Origin: Laetmonice hystrix
Taxonomy: Eukaryota
NCBI GenBank assembly: GCA_965235115.1
Contig: OZ249436.1
Span: 2,792,001 to 2,856,000 of the forward strand
DNA length: 64,000 nt
Direction of reading: 5' to 3'
A model generated the notes under the pieces. It searched no databases, was not told the DNA's origin, and worked only from the letters and a program-made list of their open reading frames with translations. Each line of letters starts with the position of its first letter. Within the stretch, counting starts at the first letter, position 1. The translations under genes were made by a program, and so were the position numbers. Below, in pieces: positions 25,693-59,197 of the stretch.

Positions 25693-28600
25693 TTATCCCA
25701 TTCACCTTCTAGGTGAATGGGATTTTGAAATTGTATGGTTTCATCTTCCTTTTTTTTTTTCATTATTATTATCCCATTCACCTTCTAGGTGAATGGGATT
25801 TTGAAATTGTATGGTTTCATCTTCCTTATACATTATTATTATTCCCGTAGATGTAGTAGTAGTAGTAGTAGTAGTAGTTGTTAACTTTGTACCCCTAATT
25901 GGTATTATTATTCAAGATATCTCGATGAAACTTGGCACATAGGTTGGCCATGGGAAGATGAGTTGGCAATGTGACCCATGACGTCGTATGACGTAACGTC
26001 GTGACGTAATGACGTAAAAACCTTTCCAGATATATAGGCCTGTATTTAATGGTAAATTAGACTTTTTGAAAAACTATTGCCACCGTCAGTATTGGACAAG
26101 GGCCTAGCAAAATTGGGGAGGGCAGTTTGACCTTTGACCTTTGACCTATATGAGAACTAGGTCAAAATGTCCCAATCACCTAAATCCTTTCCAGTCCATC
26201 AATTTTTAAAGAAATCCCTTCAAATTTGGCTCATTGATAGACAAGGGAGGCCACATTACAGGTAAGATATGGCTAATTGATTTGACCTATATTTAAAGAG
26301 TCACGTGACTTCAAAGTTAAGAAAAATTTGCTAGAAGGCAATATAGGGCTATAACTCAAGAACGGTGCAAGATAGAGACAAAGTTACTATAGAACGAGTA
26401 TAGGAAGTCATATATATTCTTTCATTATCCACCATTATTTTTCAGGTCACGTGACCTATGACGTCATAAGGAGGTCACCTATATTTTCCAAGAGCTATAA
26501 CTAGTAAATGGTTGAAGATAGAGCCATAGTTACTATTAAACACTAATAGGAAGTCATGTATGATCTTTCATTATACAGCTTTATTTTTCAGGTCACGTGA
26601 CCTAATGACGTCATAAGGAGGTGACCTGTATTTTACCAGGGCTATAACTAGTAAATGGTTGAAGATAGAGCCATAGTTACTATTACACACAAATATGAAG
26701 TCATATATGATCTTTCATTATGGAGCTTTATTTTTCAGGTCACGTGACCTAATGACGTCATAAGGAGCTGACCTGTATTTTACCATGGCTATAACTAGTA
26801 AATGGTTGAAGATAGAGCTATAGTTACTATTAAACACTAATAGGAAGTCATACATGGTCTTTCATTATGCACCTTTATTTTTCAGGTCACGTGACCTATG
26901 ACGTCATAAGGAGGTCACCTATATTTTCCAAGGGCTATGACTATTAAATGGTTAAAGATAGAGCCAAAGTTACTATAGAACATGTATAGGAAGTCATATA
27001 TGCTCTTCCATTATACACCATTATTTTATAGGTCACGTGACCTATGACGTCATAACGAGGTCACCTATATTTTCTCAGGGCTATAACTTGTAAATGGTTG
27101 AAGTTAGAGGTATAGTTACTATTAAACACGTATAGGAAGTCATGTATGGTCTTTCATTATACACCTTTATTTTTTAGGTCACGTGACCTATGACGTCATA
27201 ACGAGGTCACCTATATTTTCTCAGGGCTATAACTTGTAAATGGTTAAAGTTAGAGGTATAGTTACTATTAAACACATATAGGAAGTCATGTATGGCCTTT
27301 CGAATGATACCATTTTTATTTAGGTCACGTGACCCTACGTGACCCTATGACGTCATCGGTATTTTCAGATAGCAGTATCTTGGAAACAGAGCCAGATAGA
27401 CCCTTAGTTACTATTGAAGACAGATAGGAAGTCATGTATGGCCTTTCAAATGATACCATTTTTATTTAGGTCACGTGACCCTACGTGACCCTATGACGTC
27501 ATCGGTATTTTCAGATAGCAGTAACTTGGAAACAGAGCCAGATAGACCCTTAGTTACTATTGAAGACAGATAGGAAGTCATGTATGGCCTTTCAAATGAT
27601 ACCATTTTTATTTAGGTCACGTGACCCTACGTGACCCTATGACGTCATCGATATTTTCAGATAGCAGTAACTTGGAAACAGAGCTAGATAGGCCCATAGT
27701 TACTATTGGGGACAGATAGGAAGTCATATATGGCCTTTCAAATGACACCATTTTTATTTAGGTCACCTGGCTCTACCTGACCCTATGACGTCATCGGTAA
27801 TTTCAGATGACTGTAACTTGGTAAAAGAGCCAGATGTGTGCATGGTTACTAATTAAACTCATGGGACATCTTATATCACCTTTCATTTCCCTATTTAAAT
27901 GCTGTCACGTGACCCCATCTGGCTCCATGACCCTTTTTACGTCATTTTCAACCAAAAATCAGTAATATCTCGAAAACGGTTAAAGATATCAACGTCTGGT
28001 TTTCGCCATTGGGGTTAAGATGGAAAACTTGACCCATTTTCCTCGAATTTGAAAAATCCAAGATGGCGGCCAAGTTGACCTAATTTTTTATTATAACACC
28101 ATTGGATTGGGTAATGGGTCAGCTATCTCTGACACCGAGATGGCTCCCCTAAAATCAATAGTTTTCATGTTATGGCCCCTCAAAGTTGGCCCTTTTAGGT
28201 CATTTTCAACCAAAAATCATTGATAACTCTAAAACGGTTAAAGATATCAACGTCTGGTTTTCGCCATTGGGGTTAGGATGGAAAACTTGACCCATTTTCC
28301 TCAAATTTGAAAAATCCAAGATGGCGGCCAAGTTGACCTAATTTTTGATTTTAAGACCATTGGATTGGGTAATGGGTCAGCTGTCTCTGACACCGAGATG
28401 GCTCCCCTAAAATCAATAGTTTTCATGTTATGGCCCCTCAAAGTTGGCCCTTTTACGTCATTTTCAACCAAAAATCAGTGATATCTCGAAAACGGTTTAA
28501 GATATCAACGTCTGGTTTTCGCCATTGGGGTTAAGATGGAAAACTTGACCCATTTTCCTCGAATTTGAAAAATCCAAGATGGCGGCCAAGTTGACCTAAT

Positions 28601-30624
28601 ATGTTGGATAATTGCCGGGAATCCTCCAAAACATGTTTCATAGTATGTCCCTTTAAATCCTTTCAACTCCCTCAAATTTAAAAGAAATTCTATGAAACTC
28701 ATGCAAGAACATTAGTGGCCTCAGTACAGGAACGACGGGATTAAGCGATCTGACCTATATTAAGCAAGTCACGTGTCCTCAAATTTGAGGAAAACTTGTG
28801 AGAAGTCGGTATGGGGCTATAACTGAAGAACGGTGCAAGATAGAGGCAAAGTTACTATAGAACACGTATAGGAAGTTCTATATCCTCTTTCATTGTGCAC
28901 CTTTATTTTTAAGGTAACGTGACCTATGACGTCATACCTAGGTTACCTATATTTTCCCAGGGCTATAACTTGTAAATGGTTGAAGATAGAGTGATAGTTA
29001 CTATTAAACACTAATAGGAAGTCATACATGCTCTTTCATTATGCCCCTTTATTTTTGAGGTCACGTGACCTATGACGTCGTAATGAGGTCACCTATGTTT
29101 TCTCAGGGTTATAACTTGTAAATGGTTGAAGATAGAGCCAGAGTTACTATTAAACACTAATAGGAAGTCATATATGCTTTTTCATCATAAACCTTTATTT
29201 TTCAGGTCACGTGACCTATGACGTCATAAGGAAGTCACCTAGATTTTCTCAGGGTTTTTAACTTCTAAATTATAAATTGTAGGTTCCACATGCCAAGTTG
29301 TCATGACCATCTGATCTATGACCTCAATTGACCTCAAGTAGTAATAAATACAATTACACAATTTTTAACTCGTGAATGGGATTCCTGTGCCATGGCACCT
29401 AGCAACTAGTTATTATTCCTGTAGTTAACTTTTTACCTCTAATTGGTTATAATTGGTCCTTTTTTTCAAGATATCTTAATGAAACTTGGCACATGTATTG
29501 CCCACATGACCCATGACGTCATATGACGTAACGTCATGACGTTATGACATAAAAACGGTTCCACATATATAGGCCTGTATTTCATGGTAAATTAGACTTT
29601 TTGAAAAACTATTGCCACCGTCAGTATTGGACAAGGGTCTAGCAAAATTGTGGAGTCCAGTTTGACCTTTGACCTTTGACCTATATGAGAACTAGGTCAA
29701 AATGTTCCAATCACCTAAATCCTTTCCAGTCCATCAATTTTCAAAGAAATCCCTTCAAACTTGGCTCATTGATAGACAAGGGAGGCCTCATTACAGGTAA
29801 GATAGGCCTAATTGATTTGACCTATATTAAGAGAGTCACGTGACTTCAAAGTTAGGAAAATTTGGCTGGAAGGCAATATTGGGCTATAACTCAAGAACGG
29901 TGCAAGATAGAGGCAAAGTTACTATAGAACACTTATAGGAAGTCATATATCCTCTTTCATTATCCACCATTATTTTTTAGGTCACGTGACCTATGACGTC
30001 ATAAGGAGGTCACCTATAGTTTCCAAGGGCTATAACTAGTAAATGGTTGAATATAGAGCCATAGTTACTATTAAACACTAGTAGGAAGTCATATATGATC
30101 TTTCATTATACAGCTTTATTTTTCAGGTCACGTGACCTAATGACGTCATAAGGAGGTGACCTGTATTTTACCAGGGCTATAACTTGTAAATGGTTGAAGA
30201 TAGAGCCATCGTTACTATTAAACACTAATAGGAAGTCATATATGGTCTTTCATTATGCACCTTTATTTTTTAGGTCACGTGACCTATGACGTCATAATGA
30301 GGTCACCTTGATTTTCTCAGGGTTATAACTTCTGAATGGTTGAAGATACAGTCAAAGTTACTATTAAACACTAATAGGAAGTCATATATGCTCTTTCATT
30401 ATGCACCTTCATTTTTCAGGTCACGTGACCTATGACGTCATAAGGAGGTCACCTAGATTTTCTCTGGGTTTAACTTCTAAATTCTAAATTGTAGGTTCCA
30501 CATGCCAAGTTGTCATGACCATATGATCCATGACCTCAATTGACCTCAAGTAGCAATAAATACAATTACACAATTTTTAATTGGTGAATGGGATACCTGT
30601 GCCCATGGCACCTGGCAACTAGTT
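25693..30624 (+). mobile_element. Non-autonomous Helentron (HINE), family 2, outer copy split by a nested copy
   Basis: 5' hairpin ATCCCATTCACCT-TCT-AGGTGAATGGGAT after a T-run. The body resumes at about 29412. The 3' end has subTIR GGTGAATGGGAT, hairpin GTGCC-CAT-GGCAC and CTAGTT ending at 30624. Confidence 0.85.
25769..29411 (+). mobile_element. HINE family 2, inner nested copy with expanded internal repeats
   Basis: Second identical 5' hairpin at 25771, a (TAG)n microsatellite, ~146-147-bp and 258-bp central tandem repeats, and a 3' end GTGAATGGGAT...GTGCCATGGCAC...CTAGTT ending at 29411. Confidence 0.85.
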
Positions 30625-32345: not shown

Positions 32346-34712
32346 GGACCGTGATTATCTTGTTTGACTTGACACTAACTATCTTTTCTACGATTAAATT
32401 TATACGGTAAAAACTGCAACGATAAGCAGAATTGTGATGAGCAGTGGATTGGCCTTACTGCCTGACAACTAACAACCAGACATGGCCGTACAGGTTTCAC
32501 TTAGATAAAAGATGATCTGCCATTAGAAGCTCACGGTCAACTAGGTGCAGTTGGTATTTCAGGAGCACTCGGTGCTGCCATCCGATCAACAGTGGGAGTT
32601 TCTGCAGGACAACTATGTCGGTTAGATCACTCCCGAACTAGACACGTTGTGGCGATACCACAATTGATCCCATCCCCGGGGAGTCACGTGATATATGACA
32701 TGTTCTGAGTAGGGTAAACTATGGCTCGATCTTGCACAGTTAATGACCTATAAGCTTCAGAAGATGCCAATGACGTAATTATGAGGTGACACGTCATACT
32801 ATGTAATGAATCTTGGTCTCAAATGAAAGAGCATGTAGGCTATATGACTTCCTATTACTGTTTAATAGTAACTATAGCTCTAACTTCTACCATTTACAAG
32901 TTATAGCCCTGAGAAAAATACCTAAAAAAATGTCAAGTGAAAGATCATATATGACTTCCTATTAGGGTTAAATGGTAACCATTGCTCTATCTTGAATGGT
33001 TTAGGATTTAGAAACCTTCGAAGATGTCAATGGCATCATTATGACATAATAATGATACATTACATCATAAATCTTGGTGTCAATTGAAAGAGCATACAAT
33101 GTATATGACTTCCTATTCCTGTTCAATAGTAACCATGGCTCCATCTTGCACCGTTTACAAGTTATAGGCTGAAGAAATAATGATAACATCATAACGTCAT
33201 GCTCCTCCCGCAGGCATGCACAGATCCAGGTATCGAGATTCTTTGCTGGAATTTAGAAGGTCAAAAAACGCTATTTCTGGAGATAGATGTAAAGTTTCTC
33301 AAAGTATTTAAGGCGCGTGTCGGTAGACCCCATTCTCCGCCAGAACATAGATTCTTTTTCCCTTCAACACGGAACGAACAGGTGCAAAGCATTCCGGCTA
33401 TTTTCAACTAGTTGAGTGATGAATCCACAAAATATAATGCCCTAAAATGGCCCTAAAAGGCGGAAAATCGTTTTATAAGAGCTTTTAATTTTTTAAGATT
33501 TCCCGAGACCCCTCTGCTGAAAATCCTGGACCCGTGGCTAGCCTAACAATAATTTTTTGTCAATTCTTCAAAAAGAAAGAGTGGGGGTATAGAGGGATGT
33601 GCCCACGCCGGGCGGCGCCGGGCGGCGCCACCCGGCACCGATTTTAGCCGCCTGGCACAAAACTAAAATGGTTTAAGTGCTGCCCGGCAGGAATTTTTAT
33701 CAGGCCTATCATCTGAAAAAATATCTCCCCATCTGCACCCCTTGCCAACTGAAAACCTTGCGCCTTCGCTGCTAGCGGAAAACTACCGCCCGGCACTCAT
33801 TTTTTTCTGGGCGCATCTGCCCATGGCAAGTTGACTTGTGCACTGAAAAGTGCTTTCCTATATATTTTAGTATTATACAAAAATGATAGCCTCATAACAT
33901 AACAGTTCAATGTGTCTAATTACAGTGCTAATTTTCTCTTCACCCTTGTTAACATTTCTTCTTGGTAGTAGAGTCGTCGCTTGAGTTTTGAAGCTTTTAT
34001 TCCTGAGGCACACGGTTGTCCCGCTTCGACCAATATGTCACTAGGCAGTCAGTGTCTATATGTTCCTCATAGACAAATCTATATCTCTGTCCTTTCTCTG
34101 CTCCTTCTCCCCTAGTCTCTCTCTCTCTCTCTCTTGGTGCTCTCATATATCCCCTCGTTCCCGTTTTTGCCCCAGTCCCAGTTTAAAGGATGGTCACTGG
34201 TCATTGGCCGGTGGCCCACGTCCAATTAACTGACCGCCCCCTGACCGGCTCCTCTGATTGAGAGCTGCCGCCCTATGGCTGGCATGTTATATGACTGAGA
34301 AGGTACCTCTTCTATAAACAGTCCTTAAGTATTTCTCACAGAGCGTTCCCCTTCTCCCTTCCGCAGACCCGCTCAAGTGATTGCTGCATCTATTGTGTGT
34401 GCTGCTCGCCAGGACGACTGCATACCTGTCTACTGTGCACACCGTTCGTTCACTTCTATCTCTCGCCATTTAGCCAACACGTAGTCATACATCATGAAAC
34501 TTTACCAATAGGTGCGAATGTCATCCACACCAGACTGTTGGCTCAGGCTAAACCAAGTGCAGCTGACCAAAAGCTTGTCGTGTCACTTGAACTCCACAAC
34601 CAACAATCAGTAGTATTGTTTTATTCAGCTCTCCTACATAAGATTCAAAAACAAATGCATTAGGCAGTTACACCTACAGTTCAAAGGCACAGCTAAGTCA
34701 GTTCTGAATACA

Positions 34713-34915
34713 GGTATATCGCCCATGATAACTTAAACTCCACGAAATTTGGTGGAAAGGAAAGATTCATGGCCCTGACCTTATCCCTAACCCCTAACCC
34801 CTAACCCCAGTTCCTACACCTCCCCAAAACATATCCCTACCCTACCCCTATCCCTGATATTAACCCTAACCCCTGCCCAAACATTTCGTGGAAAGTTATC
34901 ATGGGGGATAGAACC
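34713..34915. mobile_element. GG...CC MITE with 8-bp TSD and telomere-like (TAACCC) interior, Merlin- or MULE-like; cargo in the type-A HINE
   Basis: TIRs GGTATATCGCCCATGATAACTT / AAGTTATCATGGGGGATAGAACC flanked by TGAATACA on both sides. The empty site with a single TGAATACA is present in the B units at 37059 and 42619. Confidence 0.8.
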
Positions 34916-37900
34916 TGAATACACAATCATATTCCTCCCTCACTGGGAGGGAGGGGGAGTAGGCCGGCCGGCCGGCCCTTATCACCAGCACTTACGTAAC
35001 TCTCTCCCGGCCTGGCCAGGGACCGGCGGCCGCATCACAGTGGGAGATCTGTGTATTCAGAGATGCCAACAGTCAGACGGCAAAAATATTATTGTGAAGA
35101 CTATACCCATTAAAACTTACAATTCTGGCCATATTACCTTTCCAAAACAAGAACTAAACAGCCAGTGGTATACCTGAATCTATACACTTTGTAATTGTTG
35201 TATTTGTATATGGCTATCTTAAACAGGTTTAAGGTAGAGCCTGTCAACGTCAGATTACATTATTTCATCATAAATAAAAAAGATATTGGTAAATTTATGA
35301 AAAGAAATATGCAAAGTGATCAATCGTCAATAGCAGCACATATCTATTGACCAAATACACGATTCCTATATGACTAAAGCAGTTTTAGAAAAAAATGTCA
35401 AAAGTGACAAACTTCAAAGTCACGTGGTTCGGTAAAAATAGGTCAAATCGCTAATCCTTGGAATCGTATTGTGAACCTTTCGTTAGAGAGTGTTTCTGCC
35501 GAATATTGTCGAATTTTACCAAAAAATAGAAAAGGAGAAGCAATTTAACTGATTTGTGACCAATGACCCAGTTCACCCTAAGGTCAAAGGTCAAAGGTCA
35601 AATCAAGACTCAAATTGAGGCAGCACCTATGGCCGATTATGAGGCCATGACGGGTTTTAAAAAAAATTCCCAATATGAGCTTAAAAATGGCTTCAATTTT
35701 CATAATACGTTTGACGTCATCACGTTATGACGTGACGTCACATGACGTCAGGATTCTATGCCTGACCATACTTCGTCATTGTCAAGATGTGTGCCAAATT
35801 TCATTTCGATATTTTGAAAATTGACTGAGATAGACATACAAGTTTACTACTACTACTACTACTACTACTACAACTACGACGCCAAAAACTAGACACGTTG
35901 TGGCGATACCACAATAGATCCCATCCCCGGGGAGTCACGTGATATATGACTTCCTATTCCTGTTCAATAGTAACCATGGCTCAATCTTTCACCGTTTACG
36001 AGTTGGAGGCTTAGGAAAATAATCTTAATATCATTATAATCTCATACGTCATGATCCTGCTTTCATGCAGGCTCAGATCCAGTACCGCAAGAAAGGAGGG
36101 GCACCAAAGGTGCAAGGCAAACATGGGCGCGGGGGGGGGGGACTTGAATTTAGAAAGTCAAAGAACGTTACTTCTGGAGCTAGATGTGAAGTTTCTCAAA
36201 GTATTTCAGGCGCATGTAGGGGTCCGGGGGTTGGACCCCCTCTCCTGCTCCCCCAGAGCATAGATTCATTTTTCCTTAGATTCAGCGGGACACCATCGAA
36301 CGAACAGGTGCAAAGCATTCTGCCTATTTTAAACTGGTTGAGTGATGAATAGGCCTACAAAAAATATAGTGCACTAAATGGGTCCATAAAAGGCTTCTAA
36401 TTTAAAAAAAAAAACATTTCGGCGACCACCCTGCTGAAAATCCTAGATACGTGGCTGTATTTAGACCTAGCCTAACAATAATGTCAATTCTTTAAAAAGA
36501 AAGAGTGCAGATACGCCCCTGACATGTCGAAAGGGATCATAGATATCTACTGCATGGTATATCTACCTATTTTGATATTAATCATTGTGGAAGGATACAT
36601 TAAAATCGTAATTATATATCTAGAGACTCTGATTGCCAAGCAATACAGGTAGGTCCCATTTCCCGAATGGTTTTCTATCATTACCTACATTTTTCTCTCA
36701 TTTAATTATTGTCCCAACAATAGCGTCATTTCCATTCACATGGAAGTTACTAAGTATTCTTTTGACATTATGAAATATTATAGTCCTGATGGATTATATG
36801 GATTATACCCGTTACGGGCATCATGACAAATATCACAGACTCAAGAACAATAGGTGCGAATGCCATCCACACCAGGCTGTTGGCTCACGCTGAAACCAAG
36901 TGCAGCTGGCCAAAAGTTTGCCGTGTCTCTTGAACTCCACAGCCAACAATCAGTAGTAGCCTAGTGTTTTATTCAGCTCTCCTATGTAAGATTTAAAAAC
37001 AAATGCATGGAGACAGTAACACAGTTCAAAGGCACAGCTAATTCAGTTATGTCAGTTCTGAATACACAATCATCCTCCACCAAACCGACCCTGACTGGGA
37101 GGGAGGGGGCGGAGTCACAACCCGCCTGCCGACCCGGCCGCCTGGCCGGCCCTTATCACCAGCGCTTACGTAACCCTCTGCCGACCCTGGCTCTGGCCTC
37201 CCAGCAGGTGATTTGTGTATTCAGAGATGCCACCTGTCAGAGTGTAAAAATATTATAGTGAAGACTATACCCATTAAAACTTACAATTCTGGCCATATTA
37301 CCTTTCCAAAACAAGAACTAAACAGTCAGTGGTATACCTGAATCTATACACTTTGTAATTGTTGTATTTGTATATGGCTATCTTAAACAGGTTTAAGGTA
37401 GAGCCTGTCAACGTCAGATTACATTATTTCATCATAAATAAAAAAGATATTGGTAAATTTATGAAAAGAAATATGCAAAGTGACCAATCGTCAATAGCAG
37501 CACATATCTAGTGACCAAATACACGATTCCTATATGACTAAAGCAGTTTTAGAAAAAAATGTCAAAAGTGACAAACTTCAAAGTCACGTGGTTCGGCGAA
37601 AATAGGTCAAATCGCTAATCCTTGGAATCGTATTGTGAACCTTTCGTTAGAGAGTGTTTTTGCCGAATATTGTCGAATTTTACCAAAAAATAGAGAAGGA
37701 GAAGCAATTTAACCGATTTGTGACCAATGACCCAGTTCACCCTAAGGTCAAAGGTCAAAGGTCAAATCAAGACTCAAATTGAGGCAGCACCTTTGGCCGA
37801 TTATGAGGGCATGGCGGGTTTTTAAAAAAAATTCCCAATATGAGCTTAAAAATGGCTTCAATTTTCATAATACGTTTGACGTCATCACGTCATGACGTGA

Positions 37901-39632
37901 CGTTACATGACGTCAGGATTCGATGCCTGACCATACTTTGTCATTGTCAAGATGTGTGCCAAATTTCATTTTGATATTTTGAAAATTGACTGAGATAGAC
38001 ATACAAGTTTACTACTACTACTACTACAACTACGACGCCAAAAACTAGACACGTTGTGGCGATACCACAATTGATCCCATCCCCGGGGAGTCACGTGATA
38101 GGCCTATATGACATGTTCTGAGTAGGGTAAACTATGGCTCGATCTTGCACAGTTAATGACCTATAAGCTTTAGAAGATGCCAATGACGTAATTATGAGGT
38201 GACACGTCATACTGCGTAATGAATCTTGGTCTCAAATGAAAGAGCATGTAGGCTATATGACTTCCTATTACTGTTTAGGCTAATAGTAACTATAGCTCTA
38301 ACTTCTACCATTTACAAGTTATAGCCCTGAGAAAAATACCTATGACACCTTATGATGCCAGTCAAGTCACGTAAAAAAATGTCAAGTGAAAGATCATATA
38401 TGACTTCCTATTAGGGTTAAATGGTAACCATTGCTCTATCTTGAATGGTTTAGGATTTAGAAACCTTCGAAGATGTCAATGGCATCATTATGACATAATA
38501 ATGATAGGGGCCTTACATTACATCATAAATCTTGGTGTCAATTGAAAGAGCATACAATGTATATGACTTCCTATTCCTGTTCAATAGTAACCATGGCTCC
38601 ATCTTGCACCGTTTACAAGTTATAGGCTGAAGAAATAATGATAACATCATAACGTCATGCTCCTCCCGCAGGCATGCACAGATCCAGCACTGCACAAAAG
38701 GAGGGGCACCAGAGGTGCGAGGCGAACATGTGGGCGGGGACTTGAATCAGAGAACCTCGATATGGTATCGAGGTTCTTTGCTGGAATTTAGAAGGTCAAA
38801 AAACGCTATTTCTGGAGATAGATGTAAAGTTTCTCAAAGTATTTAAGGCGCGTGTCGGTAGACCCCATTCTCCGCCAGAACATAGATTCTTTTTCCCTTC
38901 AACACGGAACGAACAGGTGCAAAGCATTCCGGCTATTTTCAACTGGTTGAGTGATGAATCAACAAAATATAATGCCCTAAAATGGCCCTAAAAGGCGGAA
39001 AATCGCTTCTAAGAGCTTTTAATTTTTAAAGATTTCCCGAGACCCCTCTGCTGAAAATCCTGGACCCGTGGCTAGCCTAACAATAATTTTTTGTCAATTC
39101 TTCAAAAAGAAAGAGTGGGGGTATAGAGGGATGTGCCCACGCCGGGCGGCGCCACCCGGCACCGATTTTAGCCGCCTGGCACAAAACTAAAATGGTTTAA
39201 GTGCTGCCCGGCAGGAATTTTTATCAGGCCTATCATCTGAAAAAATATCTCCCCATCTGCACCCCTTGCCAACTGAAAACCTTGCGCCTTCGCTGCTAGC
39301 GCAAAACTACCGCCCGGCATTCATTTTTTTCTGGGCGCATCTGCCCATGGCAAGTTGACATGTGCACTGACAAGTGCTTTCCTATATATTTTAGTATTAT
39401 ACAAAAATGATAGCATCATAACATAACAGTTCAATGTGTCTAATTACAGTGCTAATTTTCTCTTCACCCTTGTTAACATTTCTTTTTGGTAGTAGAGTCG
39501 TCGCTTGAGTTTTGAAGTTTTTATTCCTGAGGCACACGGTTGTCCCGCTTCGACCAATATGTCACTAGGCAGTCAGTGTCTATCCTCATAGTCAAATCTA
39601 TATCTCTGTCCTTTCTCTGCTCCTTTTCCCCT

Positions 39633-39694
<62 letters not shown>

Positions 39695-40254
39695 TGCTCT
39701 TATATATCCCCTCGTTCACGTTTTTGCCCCAGTCCCAGTTTAAAGGATGGTCACTGGTCATTGGCCGGTGGCCCACGTCCAATTAACTGACCGCCCCCTG
39801 ACCGGCTCCTTTGATTGAGAGCTGCCGCCCGATGGCTGGCATGTTATATGACTGAGAAGGTACCTCTTAAGTATTTCTCACAGAGCGTTCCCCTTCTCCC
39901 TTCCGCAGACCCGCTCAAGTGATTGCTGCATCTATTGTGTGTGCTGCTCGCCAGGACGACTGCATACCTGTATACTGTGCACACCGTTCGTTCACTTCTA
40001 TCTCTCGCCATTCAGCCAACACGTAGTCATACATCATGAAACTTTACCAATAGGTGCGAATGTCATCCACACCAGACTGTTGGCTCAGGCTAAACCAAGT
40101 GCAGCTGACCAAAAGCTTGTCGTGTCACTTGAACTCCACAACCAACAATCAGTAGTATTGTTTTATTCAGCTCTCCTACATAAGATTAAAAAACAAATGC
40201 ATTAGGCAGTTACACCTACAGTTCAAAGGCACAGCTAAGTCAGTTCTGAATACA

Positions 40255-40457
40255 GGTATATCGCCCATGATAACTTAAACTCCACGAAATTTGGTGGAAA
40301 GGAAAGATCCATGGCCCTGACCTTATCCCTAACCCCTAACCCCTAACCCCAGTTCCTACACCTCCCCAAAACATATCCCTACCCTACCCCTATCCCTGAC
40401 ATTAACCCTAACCCCTGCCCAAACATTTCGTGGAAAGTTATCATGGGGGATAGAACC
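40255..40457. mobile_element. Second copy of the 8-bp-TSD MITE, carried in HINE body A'
   Basis: Same TIRs and TGAATACA TSD as 34713-34915. Confidence 0.8.
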
Positions 40458-43400
40458 TGAATACACAATCATATTCCTCCCTCACTGGGAGGGAGGGGGG
40501 AGTAGGCCGGCCGGCCGGCCCTTATCACCAGCACTTACGTAACTCTCTCCCGGCCTGGCCAGGGACCGGCGGCCGCATCACAGTGGGAGATCTGTGTATT
40601 CAGAGATGTCAACTGTCAGACGGCAAAAATATTATTGTGAAGACTATACCCATTAAAACTTACAATTCTGGCCATATTACCTTTCCAAAACGAGAACTAA
40701 ACAGCCAGTGGTATACCTGAATCTATACACTTTGTAATTGTTGTATTTGTATATGGCTATCTTAAACAGGTTTAAGCTAGAGCCTGTCAACGTCAGATTA
40801 CATTATTTCATCATAAATAAAAAAGATATTGGTAAATTTATGAAAAGAAATATGCAAAGTGACCAATCGTCAATAGCAGCACATATCTATTGACCAAATA
40901 CACGATTCTTATATGACTAAAGCAGTTTTAGAAAAAAAATGTCAAAAATGACAAACTTCAAAGTCACGTGGTTCGGTGAAAATAGGTCAAATCGCTAATC
41001 CTTGGAATCGTATTGTGAACCTTTCGTTAGAGAGTGTTTCTGCCGAATATTGTCGAATTTTACAAAAAAATAGAAAAGGAGAAGCAATTTAACCGATTTG
41101 TGACCAATGACCCAGTTCACCCTAAGGTCAAAGGTCAAAGGTCAAATCAAGACTCAAATTGAGGCAGCACCTATGGCCGATTATGAGGCCATGACGGGTT
41201 TTTAAAAAAATTCCCAATATGAGCTTAAAAATTGCTTCAATTTTCATAATACGTTTGACGTCATCACGTTATGACGTGACGTCACATGACGTCAGGATTC
41301 GATGCCTGACGATACTTCGTCATTGTCAAGATGTGTGCCAAATTTCATTTCGATATTTTGAAAATTGACTGAGATAGACATACAAGTTTACTACTACTAC
41401 TACTACTACTACTACAACTACGACGCCAAAAACTAGACACGTTGTGGCGATACCACAATTGATCCCATCCCGGGGGAGTCACGTGATATATGACTTCCTA
41501 TTCCTGTTCAATAGTAACCATGGCTCAATCTTTCACCGTTTACGAGTTGGAGGCTTAGGAAAATAATGTTAATATCATTATAATCTCATACGTCGATCAT
41601 GATCCTGCTTTCATGCAGGCTCAGATCCAGTACCGCAAGAAAGGAGGGGCACCAAAGGTGCAAGGCGAACATGGGCGCGGGGGGGGGGGGGACTTGAATT
41701 TAGAAAGTCAAAGAACGTTACTTCTGGAGCTAGATGTGAAGTTTCTCAAAGTATTTCAGGCGCATGTAGGGGTCCGGGGGTTGGACCCCCTCTCCTGCTC
41801 CCCCAGAGCATAGATTCATTTTTCCTTAGATTCAGCGGGACACCATCGAACGAACAGGTGCAAAGCATTCTGCCTATTTTAAACTGGTTGAGTGATGAAT
41901 ACTGAATAGGCCTACACAAAATATAGTGCACTAAATGGGTCCATAAAAGGCTTCTAATTTAAAAAAAAAAACATTTCGGCGACCACCCTGCTGAAAATCC
42001 TAGATACGTGGCTGTATTTAGACCTAGCCTAACAATAATGTCAATTCTTTAAAAAGAAAGAGTGCAGATACGCCCCTGACATGTCGAAAGGGATCATAGA
42101 GATCTACTGCATGGTATATCTACCTATTTTGATATATTAATCATTGTGGAAGGATACATTAAAATCGTAATTATATCTAGAGACTCTGATTGCCAAGCAA
42201 TACAGGTAGGTCCCATTTCCCGAATGGTTTTCTATCATTACCTATATTTTTCTCTCATTTAATTATTGTCCCAACAATAGCGTCATTTCCATTCACATGG
42301 AAGTTACTAAGTATTCTTTTGACATTATGAAATATTATAGTCCTGATGGATTATATGGATTATACCCGTTACGGGCATCATGACAAATATCACAGACTCA
42401 AGAACAATAGGTGCGAATGCCATCCACACCAGGCTGTTGGCTCACGCTGAAACCAAGTGCAGCTGGCCAAAAGTTTGCCGTGTCTCTTGAACTCCACAGC
42501 CAACAATCAGTAGTAGCCTAGTGTTTTATTCAGCTCTCCTATGTAAGATTTAAAAACAAATGCATTAGACAGTTATATCTACAGTTCAAAGGCACAGCTA
42601 ATTCAGTTATGTCAGTTCTGAATACACAATCATCCTCCACCAAACCGACCCTGACTGGGAGGGAGGGGGCGGAGTCACAACCCGCCTGCCAACCCGGCCG
42701 CCTGGCCGGCCCTTATCACCAGCGCTTACGTAACCCTCTGCCGACCCTGGCTCTGGCCTCCCAGCAGGTGATTTGTGTATTCAGAGATGCCACCTGTCAG
42801 AGTGTAAAAATATTATAGTGAAGACTATACCCATTAAAACTTACAATTCTGGCCACATTACCTTTCCAAAACAAGAACTAAACAGTCAGTGGTATACCTG
42901 AATCTATACACTTTGTAATTGTTGTATTTGTATATGGCTATCTTAAACAGGTTTAAGGTAGAGCCTGTCAACGTCAGATTACATTATTTCATCATAAATA
43001 AAAAAGATATTGGTAAATTTATGAAAAGAAATATGCAAAGTGACCAATCGTGAATAGCAGCACATATCTAGTGACCAAATACACGATTCCTATATGACTA
43101 AAGCAGTTTTAGAAAAAAATGTCAAAAGTGACAAACTTCAAAGTCACGTGGTTCGGCGAAAATAGGTCAAATCGCTAATCCTTGGAATCGTATTGTGAAC
43201 CTTTCGTTAGAGAGTGTTTTTGCCGAATATTGTCGAATTTTACCAAAAAATAGAGAAGGAGAAGCAATTTAACCGATTTGTGACCAATGACCCAGTTCAC
43301 CCTAAGGTCAAAGGTCAAAGGTCAAATCAAGACTCAAATTGAGGCAGCACCTTTGGCCGATTATGAGGGCATGACGGGTTTTTAAAAAAAATTCCCAATA

Positions 43401-45814
43401 TGAGCTTAAAAATGGCTTCAATTTTCATAATACGTTTGACGTCATCACGTCATGACGTGACGTTACATGACGTCAGGATTCGATGCCTGACCATACTTTG
43501 TCATTGTCAGGATGTGTGCCAAATTTCATTTTGATATTTTGAAAATTGACTGAGATAGACATACAAGTTTACTACTACTACTACTACTACAACTACGACG
43601 CCAAAAATAATACAGAAGACGAAACCACACAATTTCTAAATCCCATCCCCTCCGTAGGGGATGGGATAATAATACAGAAGACGAAACCACACAATTTCTA
43701 AATCCCATCCCCTCCGTAGGGGATGGGATAACTAGACACGTTGTGGCGATACCACAATTGATCCCATCCCCGGGGAGTCACGTGATATATGACATGTTCT
43801 GAGTAGGGTAAACTATGGCTCGATCTTGCACAGTTAATGACCTATAAGCTTTAGAAGATGCCAATGACGTAATTATGAGGTGACACGTCATACTATGTAA
43901 TGAATCTTGGTCTCAAATGAAAGAGCATGTAGGCTATATGACTTCCTATTACTGTTTAATAGTAACTATAGCTCTAACTTCTACCATTTACAAGTTATAG
44001 CCCTGAGAAAAATACCTAAAAAAATGTCAAGTGAAAGATCATATATGACTTCCTATTAGGGTTAAATGGTAACCATTGCTCTATCTTGAATGGTTTAGGA
44101 TTTAGAAACCTTCGAAGATGTCAATGGCATCATTATGACATAATAATGATACATTACATCATAAATCTTGGTGTCAATTGAAAGAGCATACAATGTATAT
44201 GACTTCCTATTCCTGTTCAATAGTAACCATGGCTCCATCTTGCACCGTTTACAAGTTATAGGCTGAAGAAATAATGATAACATCATAACGTCATGCTCCT
44301 CCCGCAGGCATGCACAGATCCAGGTATCGAGGTTCTTTGCTGGAATTTAGAAGGTCAAAAAACGCTATTTCTGGAGATAGATGTAAAGTTTCTCAAAGTA
44401 TTTAAGGCGCGTGTCGGTAGACCCCATTCTCCGCCAGAACATAGATTCTTTTTCCCTTCAACACGGAACGAACAGGTGCAAAGCATTCCGGCTATTTTCA
44501 ACTAGTTGAGTGATGAATCCACAAAATATAATGCCCTAAAATGGCCCTAAAAGGCGGAAAATCGTTTTATAAGAGCTTTTAATTTTTTAAGATTTCCCGA
44601 GACCCCTCTGCTGAAAATCCTGGACCCGTGGCTAGCCTAACAATAATTTTTTGTCAATTCTTCAAAAAGAAAGAGTGGGGGTATAGAGGGATGTGCCCAC
44701 GCCGGGCGGCGCCGGGCGGCGCCGGGCGGCGCCACCCGGCACCGATTTTAGCCGCCTGGCACAAAACTAAAATGGTTTAAGTGCTGCCCGGCAGGAATTT
44801 TTATCAGGCCTATCATCTGAAAAAATATCTCCCCATCTGCACCCCTTGCCAACTGAAAACCTTGCGCCTTCGCTGCTAGCGGAAAACTACCGCCCGGCAC
44901 TCATTTTTTTCTGGGCGCATCTGCCCATGGCAAGTTGACTTGTGCACTGAAAAGTGCTTTCCTATATATTTTAGTATTATACAAAAATGATAGCCTCATA
45001 ACATAACAGTTCAATGTGTCTAATTACAGTGCTAATTTTCTCTTCACCCTTGTTAACATTTCTTCTTGGTAGTAGAGTCGTCGCTTGAGTTTTGAAGCTT
45101 TTATTCCTGAGGCACACGGTTGTCCCGCTTCGACCAATATGTCACTAGGCAGTCAGTGTCTATATGTTCCTCATAGACAAATCTATATCTCTGTCCTTTC
45201 TCTGCTCCTTCTCCCCTAGTCTCTCTCTCTCTCTCTTGGTGCTCTCATATATCCCCTCGTTCCCGTTTTGGCCCCAGTCCCAGTTTAAAGGATGGTCACT
45301 GGTCATTGGCCGGTGGCCCACGTCCAATTAACTGACCGCCCCCTGACCGGCTCCTCTGATTGAGAGCTGCCGCCCTATGGCTGGCATGTTATATGACTGA
45401 GAAGGTACCTCTTCTATAAACAGTCCTTAAGTATTTCTCACAGAGCGTTCCCCTTCTCCCTTCCGCAGACCCGCTCAAGTGATTGCTGCATCTATTGTGT
45501 GTGCTGCTCGCCAGGACGACTGCATACCTGTCTACTGTGCACACCGTTCGTTCACTTCTATCTCTCGCCATTTAGCCAACACGTAGTCATACATCATGAA
45601 ACTTTACCAATAGGTGCGAATGTCATCCACACCAGACTGTTGGCTCAGGCTAAACCAAGTGCAGCTGACCAAAAGCTTGTCGTGTCACTTGAACTCCACA
45701 ACCAACAATCAGTAGTATTGTTTTATTCAGCTCTCCTACATAAGATTCAAAAACAAATGCATTAGGCAGTTACACCTACAGTTCAAAGGCACAGCTAAGT
45801 CAGTTCTGAATACA

Positions 45815-46024
45815 GGTATATCGCCCATGATAACTTAAACTCCACGAAATTTGGTGGAAAGGAAAGATTCATGGCCCTGACCTTATCCCTAACCCCTAAC
45901 CCCTAACCCCTAACCCCAGTTCCTACACCTCCCCAAAACATATCCCTACCCTACCCCTATCCCTGATATTAACCCTAACCCCTGCCCAAACATTTCGTGG
46001 AAAGTTATCATGGGGGATAGAACC
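45815..46024. mobile_element. Third copy of the 8-bp-TSD MITE, carried in HINE body A
   Basis: Same TIRs and TSD, with one extra TAACCCC unit. Confidence 0.8.
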
Positions 46025-47257
46025 TGAATACACAATCATATTCCTCCCTCACTGGGAGGGAGGGGGAGTAGGCCGGCCGGCCGGCCCTTATCACCAGCAC
46101 TTACGTAACTCTCTCCCGGCCTGGCCAGGGACCGGCGGCCGCATCACAGTGGGAGATCTGTGTATTCAGAGATGCCAACAGTCAGACGGCAAAAATATTA
46201 TTGTGAAGACTATACCCATTAAAACTTACAATTCTGGCCATATTACCTTTCCAAAACAAGAACTAAACAGCCAGTGGTATACCTGAATCTATACACTTTG
46301 TAATTGTTGTATTTGTATATGGCTATCTTAAACAGGTTTAAGGTAGAGCCTGTCAACGTCAGATTACATTATTTCATCATAAATAAAAAAGATATTGGTA
46401 AATTTATGAAAAGAAATATGCAAAGTGATCAATCGTCAATAGCAGCACATATCTATTGACCAAATACACGATTCCTATATGACTAAAGCAGTTTTAGAAA
46501 AAAATGTCAAAAGTGACAAACTTCAAAGTCACGTGGTTCGGTAAAAATAGGTCAAATCGCTAATCCTTGGAATCGTATTGTGAACCTTTCGTTAGAGAGT
46601 GTTTCTGCCGAATATTGTCGAATTTTACCAAAAAATAGAAAAGGAGAAGCAATTTAACTGATTTGTGACCAATGACCCAGTTCACCCTAAGGTCAAAGGT
46701 CAAAGGTCAAATCAAGACTCAAATTGAGGCAGCACCTATGGCCGATTATGAGGCCATGACGGGCTTTTAAAAAAAATCCCAATATGAGCTTAAAAATGGC
46801 TTCAATTTTCATAATACGTTTGACGTCATCACGTTATGACGTGACGTCACATGACGTCAGGATTCGATGCCTGACCATACTTCGTCATTGTCAAGATGTG
46901 TGCCAAATTTCATTTCGATATTTTGAAAATTGACTGAGATAGACATACAAGTTTACTACTACTACTACTACTACAACTACGACGCCAAAAATAATACAGA
47001 AGACGAAACCACACAATTTCTAAATCCCATCCCCTCCGTAGGGGATGGGATAATAATACAGAAGACGAAACCACACAATTTCTAAATCCCATCCCCTCCG
47101 TAGGGGATGGGATAATTAAGGCGCAGATAAAAAAAATAGTGCCTTGGCCACCCTTAACCTCCGCAATATAATCCCTTCACCAACCCTACCTCCCCCCTCC
47201 CCCCCCCCCCCCTCCACCCAGAGAATACGCCCCGGCCGGCCGTTCCGATCACCTGTT

Positions 47258-48775
47258 GCCCTGCCTCCTCCACCCCTGCCACCGGTCCACACCTGACCGT
47301 GCCGCTTGGCCTGCCTCCTCCTGCCCTCCTACCGGTCCACACCTGACCGTGCCGCTTGGCCTGCCTCCTCCACCCCTCCTACCGGTCCACACCTGACCGT
47401 GCCGCTTGGCCTGCCTCCTCCACCCCTTCCACCGGTCCACACCTGACCGTGCCGCTTGGCCTGCCTCCTCCACCCCTCCTACCGGTCCACACCTCTCCAC
47501 CCCTCCTACCGGTCCACACCTGACCGTGCCGCTTGGCCTGCCTCCTCCACCCCTCCTACCGGTCCACACCTGACCGTGCCGCTTGGCCTGCCTCCTCCAC
47601 CCCTCCTACCGGTCCACACCTGACCGTGCCGCTTGGCCTGCCTCCTCCACCCCTCCTACCGGTCCACACCTGACCGTGCCGCTTGGCCTGCCTCCTCCAC
47701 CCTCCTACCGGTCCACACCTGACCGTGCCGCTTGGCCTGCCTCCTCCACCCTCCTACCGGTCCACACCTGACCGTGCCGCTTGGCCTGCCTCCTACCGGT
47801 CCACACCTGACCGTGCCGCTTGGCCTGCCTCCTCCACCCCTCCTACCGGTCCACACCTGACCGTGCCGCTTGGCCTGCCTCCTCCACCCCTCCTACCGGT
47901 CCACACCTGACCGTGCCGCTTGGCCTGCCTCCTCCACCCCTCCTACCGGTCCACACCTGACCGTGCCGCTTGGCCTGCCTCCTCCACCCTCCTACCGGTC
48001 CACACCTGACCGTGCCGCTTGGCCTGCCTCCTCCCCCTTCCTACCGGTCCACACCTGACCGTGCCGCTTGGCCTGCCTCCTCCACCCCTCCCACCGGTCC
48101 ACACCTGACCGTGCCGCTTGGCCTGCCTCCTCCACCCCTTCCACCGGTCCACACCTGACCGTGCCGCTTGGCCTGCCTCCTCCACCCCTCCCACCGGTCC
48201 ACACCTGACCGTGCCGCTTGGCCTGCCTCCTCCACCCCTTCCACCGGTCCACACCTGACCGTGCCGCTTGGCCTGCCTCCTCCACCCCTCCTACCGGTCC
48301 ACACCTGACCGTGCCGCTTGGCCTGCCTCCTCCAACCCTCCTACCGGTCCACACCTGACCGTGCCGCTTGGCCTGCCTCCTCCACCCCTCCTACCGGTCC
48401 ACACCTGACCGTGTCGCTTGGCCTGCCTGCCTCCACCCTCCTACCGGTCCACACCTGACCGTGCCGCTTGGCCTGCCTCCTCCACCCTTCTACCGGTCCA
48501 CACCTGACCGTGCCGCTTGGCCTGCCTTCTCCACCCCTCCTACCGGTCCACACCTGACCGTGCCGGTTGGCCTGCCTCCTCCACCCCTCCTACCGGTCCA
48601 CACCTGACCGTGCCGCTTGGCCTGCCTCCTCCACCCCTCCTACTGGTCCACACCTGACCAGCTACCGTGCCGGTTGGCCTGCCTCCTCCACCCCTCCTAC
48701 CGGTCCACACCTGACCGTGCCGCTTGGCCAGCCTCCTACCGGTCCACACCTGACCAGCTACCGTGCCGGTTGGCA
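47258..48775. repeat. 50-bp GC-rich minisatellite, about 30 copies
   Basis: Unit CCTGCCTCCTCCACCCCTCCTACCGGTCCACACCTGACCGTGCCGCTTGG. Confidence 0.97.
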
Positions 48776-52774: not shown

Positions 52775-55700
52775 TGTGTATAGGCGGTTTGCCGTAAGTA
52801 CTGGCCGTTACCCCAGTGAGGTGACTGCCTGGTGTAGGCGGGTTGCCGTAAGTACTGGCCGTTGCCCCAGTGAGGGGACTGCCTGGTGTAGGCGGGTTGC
52901 CGTAAGTACTGACCGTTACCCCAGTGAGGTGACTGCCTGGTGTAGGCGGGTTGCCGTAAGTACTGGCCGTTACCCCAGTGAGGTGACTGCCTGGTGTAGG
53001 CGGGTTGCCGTAAGTACTGGCCGTTGCCCCAGTGAGGGGACTGCCTGGTGTAGGCGGGTTGCCGTAAGTACTGACCGTTACCCCAGTGAGGTGACTGCCT
53101 GGTGTAGGCGGGTTGCCGTAAGTACTGACCGTTACCCCAGTGAGGTGACTGCCTGGTGTAGGCGGGTTGCCGTAAGTACTGGCCGTTACCCCAGTGAGGT
53201 GACTGCCTGGTGTAGGCGGGTTGCCGTAAGTACTGTCCGTTACCCCAGTGAGGTGACTGCAGGGTGTAGGCGTGTTGCCGTCAGTACTGTCCGTTACCCC
53301 AGTGAGGTGACTGCCTGGTGTAGGCGGGTTGCCGTAAGTACTGGCCGTTACCCCAGTGAGGGGACTGCCTGGTGTAGGCGGGTTGCCGTAAGTACTGGCC
53401 GTTACCCCAGTGAGGTGACTGCCTGGTGTAGGCGGGTTGCCGTAAGTACTGGCCGTTACCCCCAGTGAGGTGACTGCCTGGTGTAGGCGGGTTGCCGTAA
53501 GTACTGGCCGTTACCCCAGTGAGGTGACTGCCTGGTGTAGGCGGGTTGCCGTAAGTACTGGCCGTTACCCCAGTGAGGTGACTGCCTGGTGTAGGCGGGT
53601 TGCCGTAAGTACTGGCCGTTACCCCAGTGAGGTGACTGCCTGGTGTAGGCGGGTTGCCGTAAGTACTGGCCGTTACCCCCAGTGAGGTGACTGCCTGGTG
53701 TAGGCAGGCTGCCGTAAGTACTGGCCGTTACCCCAGTGAGGTGACTGCCTGGTGTAGGCGGGTTGCCGTAAGTACTGGCCGTTACCCCCAGTGAGGTGAC
53801 TGCCTGGTGTAGGCGGGTTGCCGTAAGTACTGGCCGTTACCCCAGTGAGGTGACTGCCTGGTGTAGGCGGGTTGCCGTAAGTACTGGCCGTTACCCCAGT
53901 AAGGTGACTACAGGGTGTAGGCGGGTTGCCGTAAGTACTGGCCGTTACCCCAGTGAGGTGACTGCCTGGTGTAGGCGGGTTGCCGTAAGTACTGGCCGTT
54001 ACCCCAGTGAGGTGACTGCCTGGTGTAGGCGGGTTGCCGTAAGTACTGGCCGTTACCCCCAGTGAGGTGACTGCCTGGTGTAGGCGGGTTGCCGTAAGTA
54101 CTGGCCGTTACCCCAGTGAGGTGACTGCCTGGTGTAGGCGGGTTGCCGTAAGTACTGGCCGTTGCCCCAGTGAGGGGACTGCCTGGTGTAGGCGGGTTGC
54201 CGTAAGTACTGGCCGTTACCCCCAGTGAGGTGACTGCAGGGTGTAGGCGTGTTGCCGTAAGTACTGCCCGTTACCCCAGTGAGGTGACTGCCTGGTGTAG
54301 GCGGGTTGCCGTAAGTACTGGCCGTTACCCCAGTGAGGTGACTGCCTGGTGTAGGCGGGTTGCCGTAGGTACTGGCCGTTACCCCAGTGAGGTGACTGCC
54401 TGGTGTAGGCGGGTTGCCGTAAGTACTGGCCGTTACCCCAGTGAGGTGACTGCCTGGTGTAGGCGGGTTGCCGTAAGTACTGGCCGTTACCCCCAGTGAG
54501 GTGACTGCCTGGTGTAGGCGGGTTGCCGTAAGTACTGGCCGTTACCCCAGTGAGGTGACTGCCTGGTGTAGGCGGGTTGCTGTAAGTACTGGCCGTTACC
54601 CCAGTGAGGTGACTGCCTGGTGTAGGCGGGTTGCCGTAAGTACTGGCCGTTACCCCCAGTGAGGTGACTGCCTGGTGTAGGCGGGTTGCCGTAAGTACTG
54701 ACCGTTACCCCAGTGAGGGGACTGCCTGGTGTAGGTGGGTTGCCGTAAGTACTGGCCGTTACCCCAGTGAGGTGACTGCAGGGTGTAGGCGGGTTGCCGT
54801 AAGTACTGCCCGTTACCCCAGTGAGGTGACTGCCTGGTGTAGGCGGGTTGCCGTAAGTACTGGCCGTTACCCCAGTGAGGTGACTGCCTGGTGTAGGCGG
54901 GTTGCCGTAAGTACTGGCCGTTACCCCAGTGAGGTGACTGCAGGGTGTAGGCGGGTTGCCGTAAGTACTGGCCGTTACCCCAGTGAGGTGACTGCCTGGT
55001 GTAGGCGGGTTGCCGTAAGTACTGGCCGTTACCCCCAGTGATCGAGGGGACTGCCTGGTGTAGGTGGGTTGCCGTAAGTACTGGCCGTTACCCCAGTGAG
55101 GTGACTGCCTGGTGTAGGCGGGTTGCCGTAAGTACTGGCCGTTACCCCAGTGAGGTGACTGCCTGGTGTAGGCGGGTTGCCGTAAGTACTGGCCGTTACC
55201 CCAGTGAGGTGACTGTAGGCGGGTTGCCGTAAGTACTGGCCGTTACCCCAGTGAGGTGACTGCAGGGTGTAGGCGGGTTGCCGTAAGTACTGCCCGTTAC
55301 CCCAGTGAGGTGACTGCCTGGTGTAGGCGGGTTGCCGTAAGTACTGGCCGTTACCCCAGTGAGGGGACTGCCTGGTGTAGGCGGGTTGCCGTAAGTACTG
55401 CCCGTTACCCCAGTGAGGTGACTGCCTGGTGTAGGCGGGTTGCCGTAAGTACTGGCCGTTACCCCCAGTGAGGTGACTGCCTGGTGTAGGCGGGTTGCCG
55501 TAAGTACTGGCCGTTACCCCAGTGAGGTGACTGCCTGGTGTAGGCGGGTTGCCGTAAGTACTGGCCGTTACCCCAGTGAGGTGACTGCCTGGTGTAGGCG
55601 GGTTGCCGTAGGTACTGGCCGTTACCCCCAGTGAGGTGACTGCCTGGTGTAGGCGGGTTGCCGTAAGTACTGGCCGTTACCCCAGTGAGGTGACTGCCTG

Positions 55701-58700: not shown

Positions 58701-59197
58701 GTGAGGTGACTGCAGGGTGTAGGCGGGTTGCCGTAAGTACAGGCCGTTACCCCAGTGAGGTGACTGCCTGGTGTAGGCGGGTTGCCGTAAGTACTGGCCG
58801 TTACCCCAGTGAGGTGACTGCCTGGTGTAGGCGGGTTGCCGTAAGTACTGGCCGTTACCCCAGTGAGGTGACTGCAGGGTGTAGGCGGGTTGCCGTAAGT
58901 ACTGGCCGTTACCCCAGTGAGGTGACTGCAGGGTGTGGGCGGGTTGCCGTAGGTACTGGCCGTTACCCCAGTGAGGGGACTGCCTGGTGTAGGCGGGTTG
59001 CCGTAAGTACTGGCCGTTACCCCAGTGAGGGGACTGCAGGGTGTAGGCGGGTTGCCGTAAGTACTGGCCGTTACCCCAGTGAGGTGACTGCCTGGTGTAG
59101 GCGGGTTGCCGTAAGTACTGGCCGTTACCCCAGTAAGGTGACTGCCTGGTGTAGGCGGGTTGCCGTAGGTACTGCCCGTTACCCCAGTGAGGTGACT
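52775..59197. repeat. 54-bp GC-rich satellite, about 119 copies (6.4 kb)
   Basis: Unit GTGAGGTGACTGCCTGGTGTAGGCGGGTTGCCGTAAGTACTGGCCGTTACCCCA, with frequent C4/C5 indels. Confidence 0.98.

Follow-up and report, generated by a model that had tools for sequence, protein, structure and literature searches.

Stacked Helentron-type elements of Laetmonice hystrix and their probable origin by repeated insertion into a landing pad in resident 5' ends

In this study, we followed up a minus-strand stack of repeats at positions 32636–47115 of a 64,000-nucleotide stretch of Laetmonice hystrix DNA (hereafter the window). The sequence evidence makes it probable that the stack was built by repeated, targeted insertion of Helentrons and their non-autonomous derivatives (HINEs) into a fixed pad in the 5' end of resident relatives. 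The stack is neither a product of chance nor an oddity of a single locus, because 212 head-to-head and 88 tail-to-headless-body junctions of exactly the window type occur on many contigs, with reversed-pattern controls yielding 0. The pad itself is fixed, is used across families and is rebuilt by the first four bases of the newcomer, and it yields both nested and sibling insertions.

Composition and class of the stacked elements

Read on the minus strand from 47115 to 32636, the stack runs head, head, body A, head, head, body B, body A', body B, body A, and re-reading of the window confirmed the order, the four heads and the five bodies (here counted as five tails) given in the initial annotation. 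All four heads are identical and 62 nt long, each with a TT start, a hairpin whose 12-bp stem (4-nt loop) contains the 5' subTIR, a conserved box of about 30 nt, TATTA at the start of the (TAT)n pad, and then a T5 run. Head 1 (47054–47115, minus strand, as are all parts of the stack) is the outermost 5' end, head 2 (46992–47053) sits at its pad, and body A1 (43732–46991) is next. Head 3 (43670–43731), immediately behind the A1 tail, is a sibling at the pad of head 1, and head 4 (43608–43669) sits at the pad of head 3, ahead of body B1 (41433–43607). Three bodies that are headless in place complete the stack: A' (38045–41432), which belongs to a separate 3.38-kb subfamily, B2 (35889–38044), and A2 (32638–35888), which bears the last tail and is adjoined by host TT at 32636–32637. 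From 5' to 3', the bodies measure about 3258 (A), 2173 (B), 3386 (A'), 2154 (B) and 3249 (A) nt. They begin in the T5 run, bear a (GTA)n microsatellite, and finish with the complementary 3' subTIR, a hairpin with a 6-bp stem and the terminal CTAG. The three tail-to-body junctions (41432, 38044 and 35888) all fall at the T5 run, as had been noticed at the outset. A fifth head is missing; a 62-nt unit may have been lost, as initially presumed, or read-through of an inner 3' end may have produced an outer element that already had two bodies behind a single head when it inserted. B2 and A2 resemble the B and A pair of the copy L049 (3 and 5 mismatches, respectively), and B2 is nearer still to L037. 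The A-type bodies also hold short telomere-like GGGGTTA repeats (45880–45920, 40320–40345 and 34790–34815).

By every feature tested, the window element is an ordinary HINE, that is, a non-autonomous Helentron. Its 11-bp subTIR begins at nt 3 and the complement begins 40 nt from the 3' end, and the available text of Thomas et al. 2014 (PMC4067079) places HINE subTIRs 2–4 nt from the 5' end and ~38–60 nt from the 3' end. As in the Helentrons and HINEs described there, subTIRs, an inverted repeat by the 5' subTIR, a 3' stem-loop and a microsatellite near the 5' end are present, the last as (GTA)n behind each pad; insertion is at a TT or T-rich site without target duplication, and a Rep-helicase-endonuclease partner exists. 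Coding capacity is absent (the longest ATG frame anywhere in the stack is 95 aa). A canonical Helitron (HLE1, which starts with 5'-TC and has no subTIRs) was ruled out by the TT start and the subTIRs, although the CTAG end and the A|T cut are still traits in common with that class. The Helentron-type identity initially assigned is supported.

The initial annotation had called for a search for an autonomous partner with a shared subTIR, and a 20.7-kb Rep/PIF1/endonuclease element (C1:18662713–18683455), itself nested at a pad, was found. It has the same 11-bp subTIR as the window family, with 52 of 60 terminal columns identical and 74% identity over the first 540 nt. Helitron_like_N, DUF6570, PIF1 and Exo_endo_phos (AP endonuclease) domains score over the cut-off, and the coding sequence lies in two frames, split within the helicase. 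In the available text of PMC4067079, the family and subfamily definitions cover both this element and the window family, and DUF6570 is a marker of HLE2. Helitron_like_N matches were obtained at 125 places, about 100 of them in open frames of 2000 aa or more (mostly 2000–3600 aa), and the domain scan covered one of the 125. Another Rep match, at C1:5331348, is flanked by a nested head and tail separated by 26.7 kb, and is linked to family ends by coordinates only. In the transposase (L052:756–8312), consecutive 17-residue repeats rich in lysine and glutamine precede the Rep domain.

Stack order and the landing pad across the genome

The assembly searched comprises 627 Mb in 35 contigs, with the window on contig C1. 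The exact window family has 587 heads genome-wide at no more than 1 mismatch, and 829 tails at no more than 3 mismatches, the latter including sister families. Clade-wide, a hairpin-head pattern gave 4449 matches (control, 1) and a tail pattern 4898 (control, 282), with heads and tails roughly balanced. As many as 2618 of the 4449 heads (59%) sit 25–55 nt behind a TGGGAT motif, which marks the head or tail of another element (control, 0); this is a floor for nesting, because heads of families outside the pattern are missed. Judged by eye among the 100 matches listed, the preceding end was a head in 67 and a tail in 33. Direct tail-to-head junctions, with a head immediately behind CTAG, number 706. 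All these counts are pattern matches in one assembly and should not be taken as independent events, since flanks are shared in three pairs of the 20 sampled loci. The sequence sample (~0.3 Mb, mostly contig C1) was partly picked for stacks, and unbiased statements therefore rest on the whole-genome counts and on the analysis of listed heads and tails. Dense one-strand runs of heads and tails of many families extend over 80–100 kb or more at C1 23.75–23.95 Mb and 25.66–25.99 Mb, and are possibly very deep stacks forming repeat blocks. Tails are near-evenly spaced at C6:33757529–33766265 (~2160 nt), C2:38673972–38686469 (~4152 nt) and C1:42762464–42769441 (~3469 nt), suggesting that tandem body amplification by rolling circle or unequal crossover also occurs.

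An insertion at the pad splits the resident into a head and a headless body, and stacks therefore close last-in-first-out. Order was analysed with 94 of the 100 listed heads, the other 6 being located past the end of the tail list, and with 95 of the 100 listed tails, the 5 without a tail hairpin having been dropped; families were labelled by eye from hairpin loops and tail sequences with solo elements as keys. Seven independent mixed-family stacks (C1:2491084, 5350279, 7851696, 17340634, 18650203, 19774878 and 22487980) close in reverse order; C1:2491084 and 2517707 are a duplicate nest with a common flank and were counted once. Two of the seven contain Rep-helicase elements of 21–27 kb. The largest stack read fully spans 34.7 kb, comprises 7 heads and 7 tails of four families, and restores a clean empty site. 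Four stacks fail to balance or could not be parsed: the window lacks one head, C1:13567040 and C1:20413195 each lack one tail, and C1:18411259 could not be parsed. One 1.46-kb family is outermost in six of the seven mixed stacks (2491084, 5350279, 17340634, 18650203, 19774878 and 22487980), which suggests that stack order dates families.

Heads and tails differ in what follows them. Another head follows 28 of the 94 heads and 0 of the 33 stack-closing tails (Fisher p 1.2e-4), or 1 of 34 closing tails if one ambiguous case is included (Fisher p 7e-4); most of the 33 were judged from coordinates only, where a head outside the pattern would be missed, and two of the 33 stacks come after the tail of another family. 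The 0 of 33 led us to reject a scheme in which every subTIR with its following ~30 nt makes a hot target, so that tails would be hit as heads are. A better reading of the 706 direct tail-to-head junctions is that they join siblings at a regenerated pad. The order analysis included 12 such junctions: 10 fall within stacks that are still open, one is ambiguous and another lacks context.

These data bear on an improbable alternative, in which a few founder nests multiplied as composites, through read-through of inner 3' ends or segmental duplication, and the targeting is only apparent. The nest with the same flank at C1:2491084 and 2517707 fits such multiplication, as do the likeness of window B2 and A2 to the L049 pair, where read-through would give the extra body, and the equal tail spacing at several loci, which suggests tandem amplification. 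Against this, L033 and L038 have outer B bodies 3 mismatches apart but inner bodies 18 apart, the 20 or more head types appear in many different orders, and the host flanks of the stacks are unrelated. Repeated targeted insertion is the preferred reading.

The host sites of 27 outermost heads (28 rows, less one truncated head; one pair shares a flank) have T at −3 in 27/27 and A at −1 in 24/27, and none of the 27 ends in TATTA. Two copies (L043 and L085) carry a single T after the terminal CTAG, and the 5' TT therefore belongs to the element, the cut being made at A|T without duplication. Intact and interrupted pads differ by the inserted element only. The ordinary host target is thus T-N-A|T, without target duplication, and the element is 5'-TT...CTAG-3'; this target replaces the unspecified TT site proposed before. 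In most heads, the pad is a (TAT)n tract 29–45 nt past the 5' hairpin, a tandem row of T-N-A-T targets. Measured from the hairpin, 43 of 45 junctions have offsets of 29–45 nt that peak at 32, 35 and 38 nt, and the remaining two lie at 1 and 55 nt. The TTAT of the newcomer rebuilds the repeat behind the outer head, so that the pad is reusable, and approximately four in ten heads have another element in the pad.

Genome-wide, TATTATT has 230,229 matches, and 1898 heads are preceded by TATTA, 1641 of them with the TGGGAT subTIR motif upstream. If 4–2 TATTATT matches are assumed per head (the measured mean is 1.6 in 86 heads), pad use per site is at least 76–159-fold above that of the same heptamer elsewhere, a floor because some of the other 257 TATTA-preceded heads follow heads outside the pattern. 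This tabulation of insertion sites supports the self-targeting claim of the initial annotation; the safe-harbour role put forward with it stands as a conjecture. Both subfamilies to which that claim was attached use the pad, but use is not limited to the two, since families with different subTIRs and autonomous elements share pads. Inside the five window bodies, all 135 T-H-A-T-T sites are unused, as is the single TATTATT in each of the three A-type bodies. Selection against insertions into host DNA does not account for the emptiness of these 135 consensus sites. The host site before the outermost head has the same local letters as the re-used pad, yet is not re-used; what distinguishes the two is the upstream hairpin and box. 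Sequence alone does not account for pad use.

A plain preference for (TAT)n microsatellites, with the element merely carrying such a tract, has little probability and is already largely refuted. It would fit the arrangement of the pad as a row of T-N-A-T targets and the offset peaks that are in register with it. The five heads without a (TAT)n tract (L064, L065, L068, L040-42 and L044+45) are never followed by a head, although the number is small; such heads are possible pad-less, insertion-immune variants. On the other side, at most 257 of the 1898 TATTA-preceded heads lack the upstream motif, though more than 90% of the 230,229 TATTATT sites lie outside heads, and neither the absence of TATTA from the host sites nor the unused TATTATT of the A-type bodies agrees with this preference.

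Unequal crossover was considered through a comparison of 22 bodies of the window stack's family, in which each of the five window bodies is nearest, by mismatch counts, to a copy at another locus. A1 has 3 mismatches to the L047 copy versus 7 to A2, and A2 has 5 to its nearest copy elsewhere versus 7 to A1, a small margin for the A pair. B1 has 7 mismatches to the L038 copy and B2 has 1 to the L037 copy, versus 15 between B1 and B2. A' has 23 mismatches to the L035+36 copy versus 40–41 to A1 and A2, and represents a dispersed subfamily of its own. Because the nearest copy of every body is at a different locus, the window stack is read as repeated insertion and not duplication, and tandem duplication of the window B+A block is ruled out by the same distances. 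An origin of the stack from one insertion, with slippage of heads and unequal crossover thereafter, is consequently very improbable: that history would agree with the 97% likeness of the B+A' and B+A blocks and with the identity of the four heads, but the body distances refute it for the window, A' is a separate dispersed subfamily, and heterologous heads stack in the order opposite to their tails. The nesting initially proposed survives this alternative, and both the body relationships and the last-in-first-out order fit it.

Repeat mis-assembly is the least probable explanation: in four public runs, none of the contigs listed against window positions 32400–35950 spans the stretch and none shown bridges the flank junction, but hundreds of loci share the same grammar, the 34.7-kb stack balances its heads and tails around a clean empty site, and one low-depth contig from a second study (run X1) bears a tail-to-headless-body junction.

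Proposed mechanism and relation to known systems

An incoming element enters the (TAT)n pad of a resident at T-N-A|T, and later arrivals land ahead of earlier ones, which gives the tail-to-head junctions inside stacks. We propose that a Rep-helicase-endonuclease bound to the resident hairpin/subTIR and box would nick the first T-N-A|T ~30–45 nt downstream, and the incoming strand would be handed over by the transposase bound at the resident head. Such tethering at the resident hairpin and box, which we infer to direct the nick, has about an even chance of being correct. Among listed tails, the subTIR lies 27–36 nt ahead of the 3' cut, and its 5'-hairpin copy lies 29–45 nt ahead of the pad; tethering is favoured because the hairpin-to-pad spacing resembles the 3' subTIR-to-cut spacing, both cuts leaving a downstream T. 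From HUH chemistry, a 3'-OH is expected on the upstream side of both the target nick and the 3'-end nick, with the protein attached to the downstream T. Tails, which end in G|T, do not match the consensus, and this would account for their coldness as targets. In a weaker variant, which we regard as a distinctly less likely possibility, extrusion of the hairpin simply unwinds the adjacent AT-rich tract.

We tentatively suggest, as a possibility that falls somewhat short of even, that HLE2 transposases have a built-in homing mode to a self-regenerating pad, acting clade-wide through the resident 5' hairpin and box, and that this mode may be general for Helentrons. In that case, the Fusarium and Xenopus elements with stacked 5' termini would preserve remnants of this mode, which would also cost roughly four resident copies in ten their heads and would seed repeat blocks of 100 kb or more. 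The nests would keep a record of the order in which families were active, and the pad would supply a eukaryotic rolling-circle integrase with a short landing site that is portable.

Direction to a resident copy is likewise found in other transposase classes (DDE, retroelement and tyrosine recombinase), of which the present elements are not members: IS911 and IS30 insert next to their own ends, and Zepp and DIRS-1 self-nest. In maize, Helitrons insert preferentially into Helitrons.

For Helentrons, HINEs and DINE-1 (HLE2), a TT or T-rich preference is described in the available text of Thomas et al. (PMC4067079), in which nesting at a fixed internal site does not appear; in contrast, the host target here is T-N-A|T, and 59% of 5' ends are preceded by the end of a relative. 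A precedent is the Fusarium FoHeli HLE2 group, for which Chellapan et al. 2016 (PMC5148889), as far as the available text goes, report a TNAT target and 2–5 stacked 5' termini, read as self-insertion near the 5' end, a reading also given in the available text of PMC13342296. In Fusarium the repeated lengths vary (31, 65, 73 and 85 nt), there is usually one 3' end, and copies number in the tens, whereas here both ends are kept, closure is in reverse order, the site is fixed and cross-family, and thousands of ends were compared with background. One triple copy in Metarhizium is described in the same literature as a possible double insertion into a 5' end. The Xenopus HelenXT233, an autonomous HLE2 element, has two non-identical, directly repeated 5' termini, each typical of another subfamily; the part of the HELIANO paper at hand (PMC11417382) gives this as a structural note, without a nesting or targeting model. 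According to the accessible portion of a review (PMC12628747), plant arrays of truncated Helitrons are rolling-circle concatemers with many 5' ends and one 3' end (Xiong 2016), and Drosophila TE dimers reflect a target preference that gives double insertions at a shared host site (McGurk and Barbash 2018). Both are arrays of element parts, but neither forms heterologous last-in-first-out nests. No such pad is reported in the available parts of the oyster HINE paper (PMC7492417) or of a Paramecium paper (PMC13085455), the latter describing telomere-repeat targeting by another clade. In the mostly open-access literature searched, we found no report of a fixed, cross-family landing site in majority use. 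Self-insertion near the 5' end has thus already been proposed, in Fusarium, and a precise, cross-family, majority pad goes beyond the scattered cases described. A single scan of metagenome contigs for other species returned 9 loci, and neither a pad nor a second hairpin head was present at any of them, which speaks neither for nor against pad use outside this genome.

Thomas et al. (PMC4067079, available text) call for biochemistry on Helentron target choice and on the role of the endonuclease. The present reading predicts that a head of ~65 nt should draw insertions at one register. If it is true, most insertions spare host sequence and sever related elements from their 5' ends, with relevance for copy-number control and for the nucleation of repeat blocks. 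Stack order would then serve as a relative chronology of families, and annotation tools that join each terminus to its nearest partner will mis-call nests.

Neighbouring repeats in the window

A second, independent stack (head, head, body, body) lies on the plus strand at 25693–30622 of the window and belongs to a diverged family with a different subTIR, 146-nt internal repeats and a junction in its own (TTA)n tract. The 146-nt repeat unit, in diverged form, is common to both window families and the autonomous element (L051, first 2 kb), as in satellite-bearing oyster HINEs; in the window it occupies 26345–27931, 28814–30482 and 32717–33200. The window is also crowded with minisatellites (84 listed rows, e.g., 52781–59197 and 47256–48737), among them a 54-mer present in 119 copies and, adjoining the left flank of the stack, an array of a GC-rich 50-mer.
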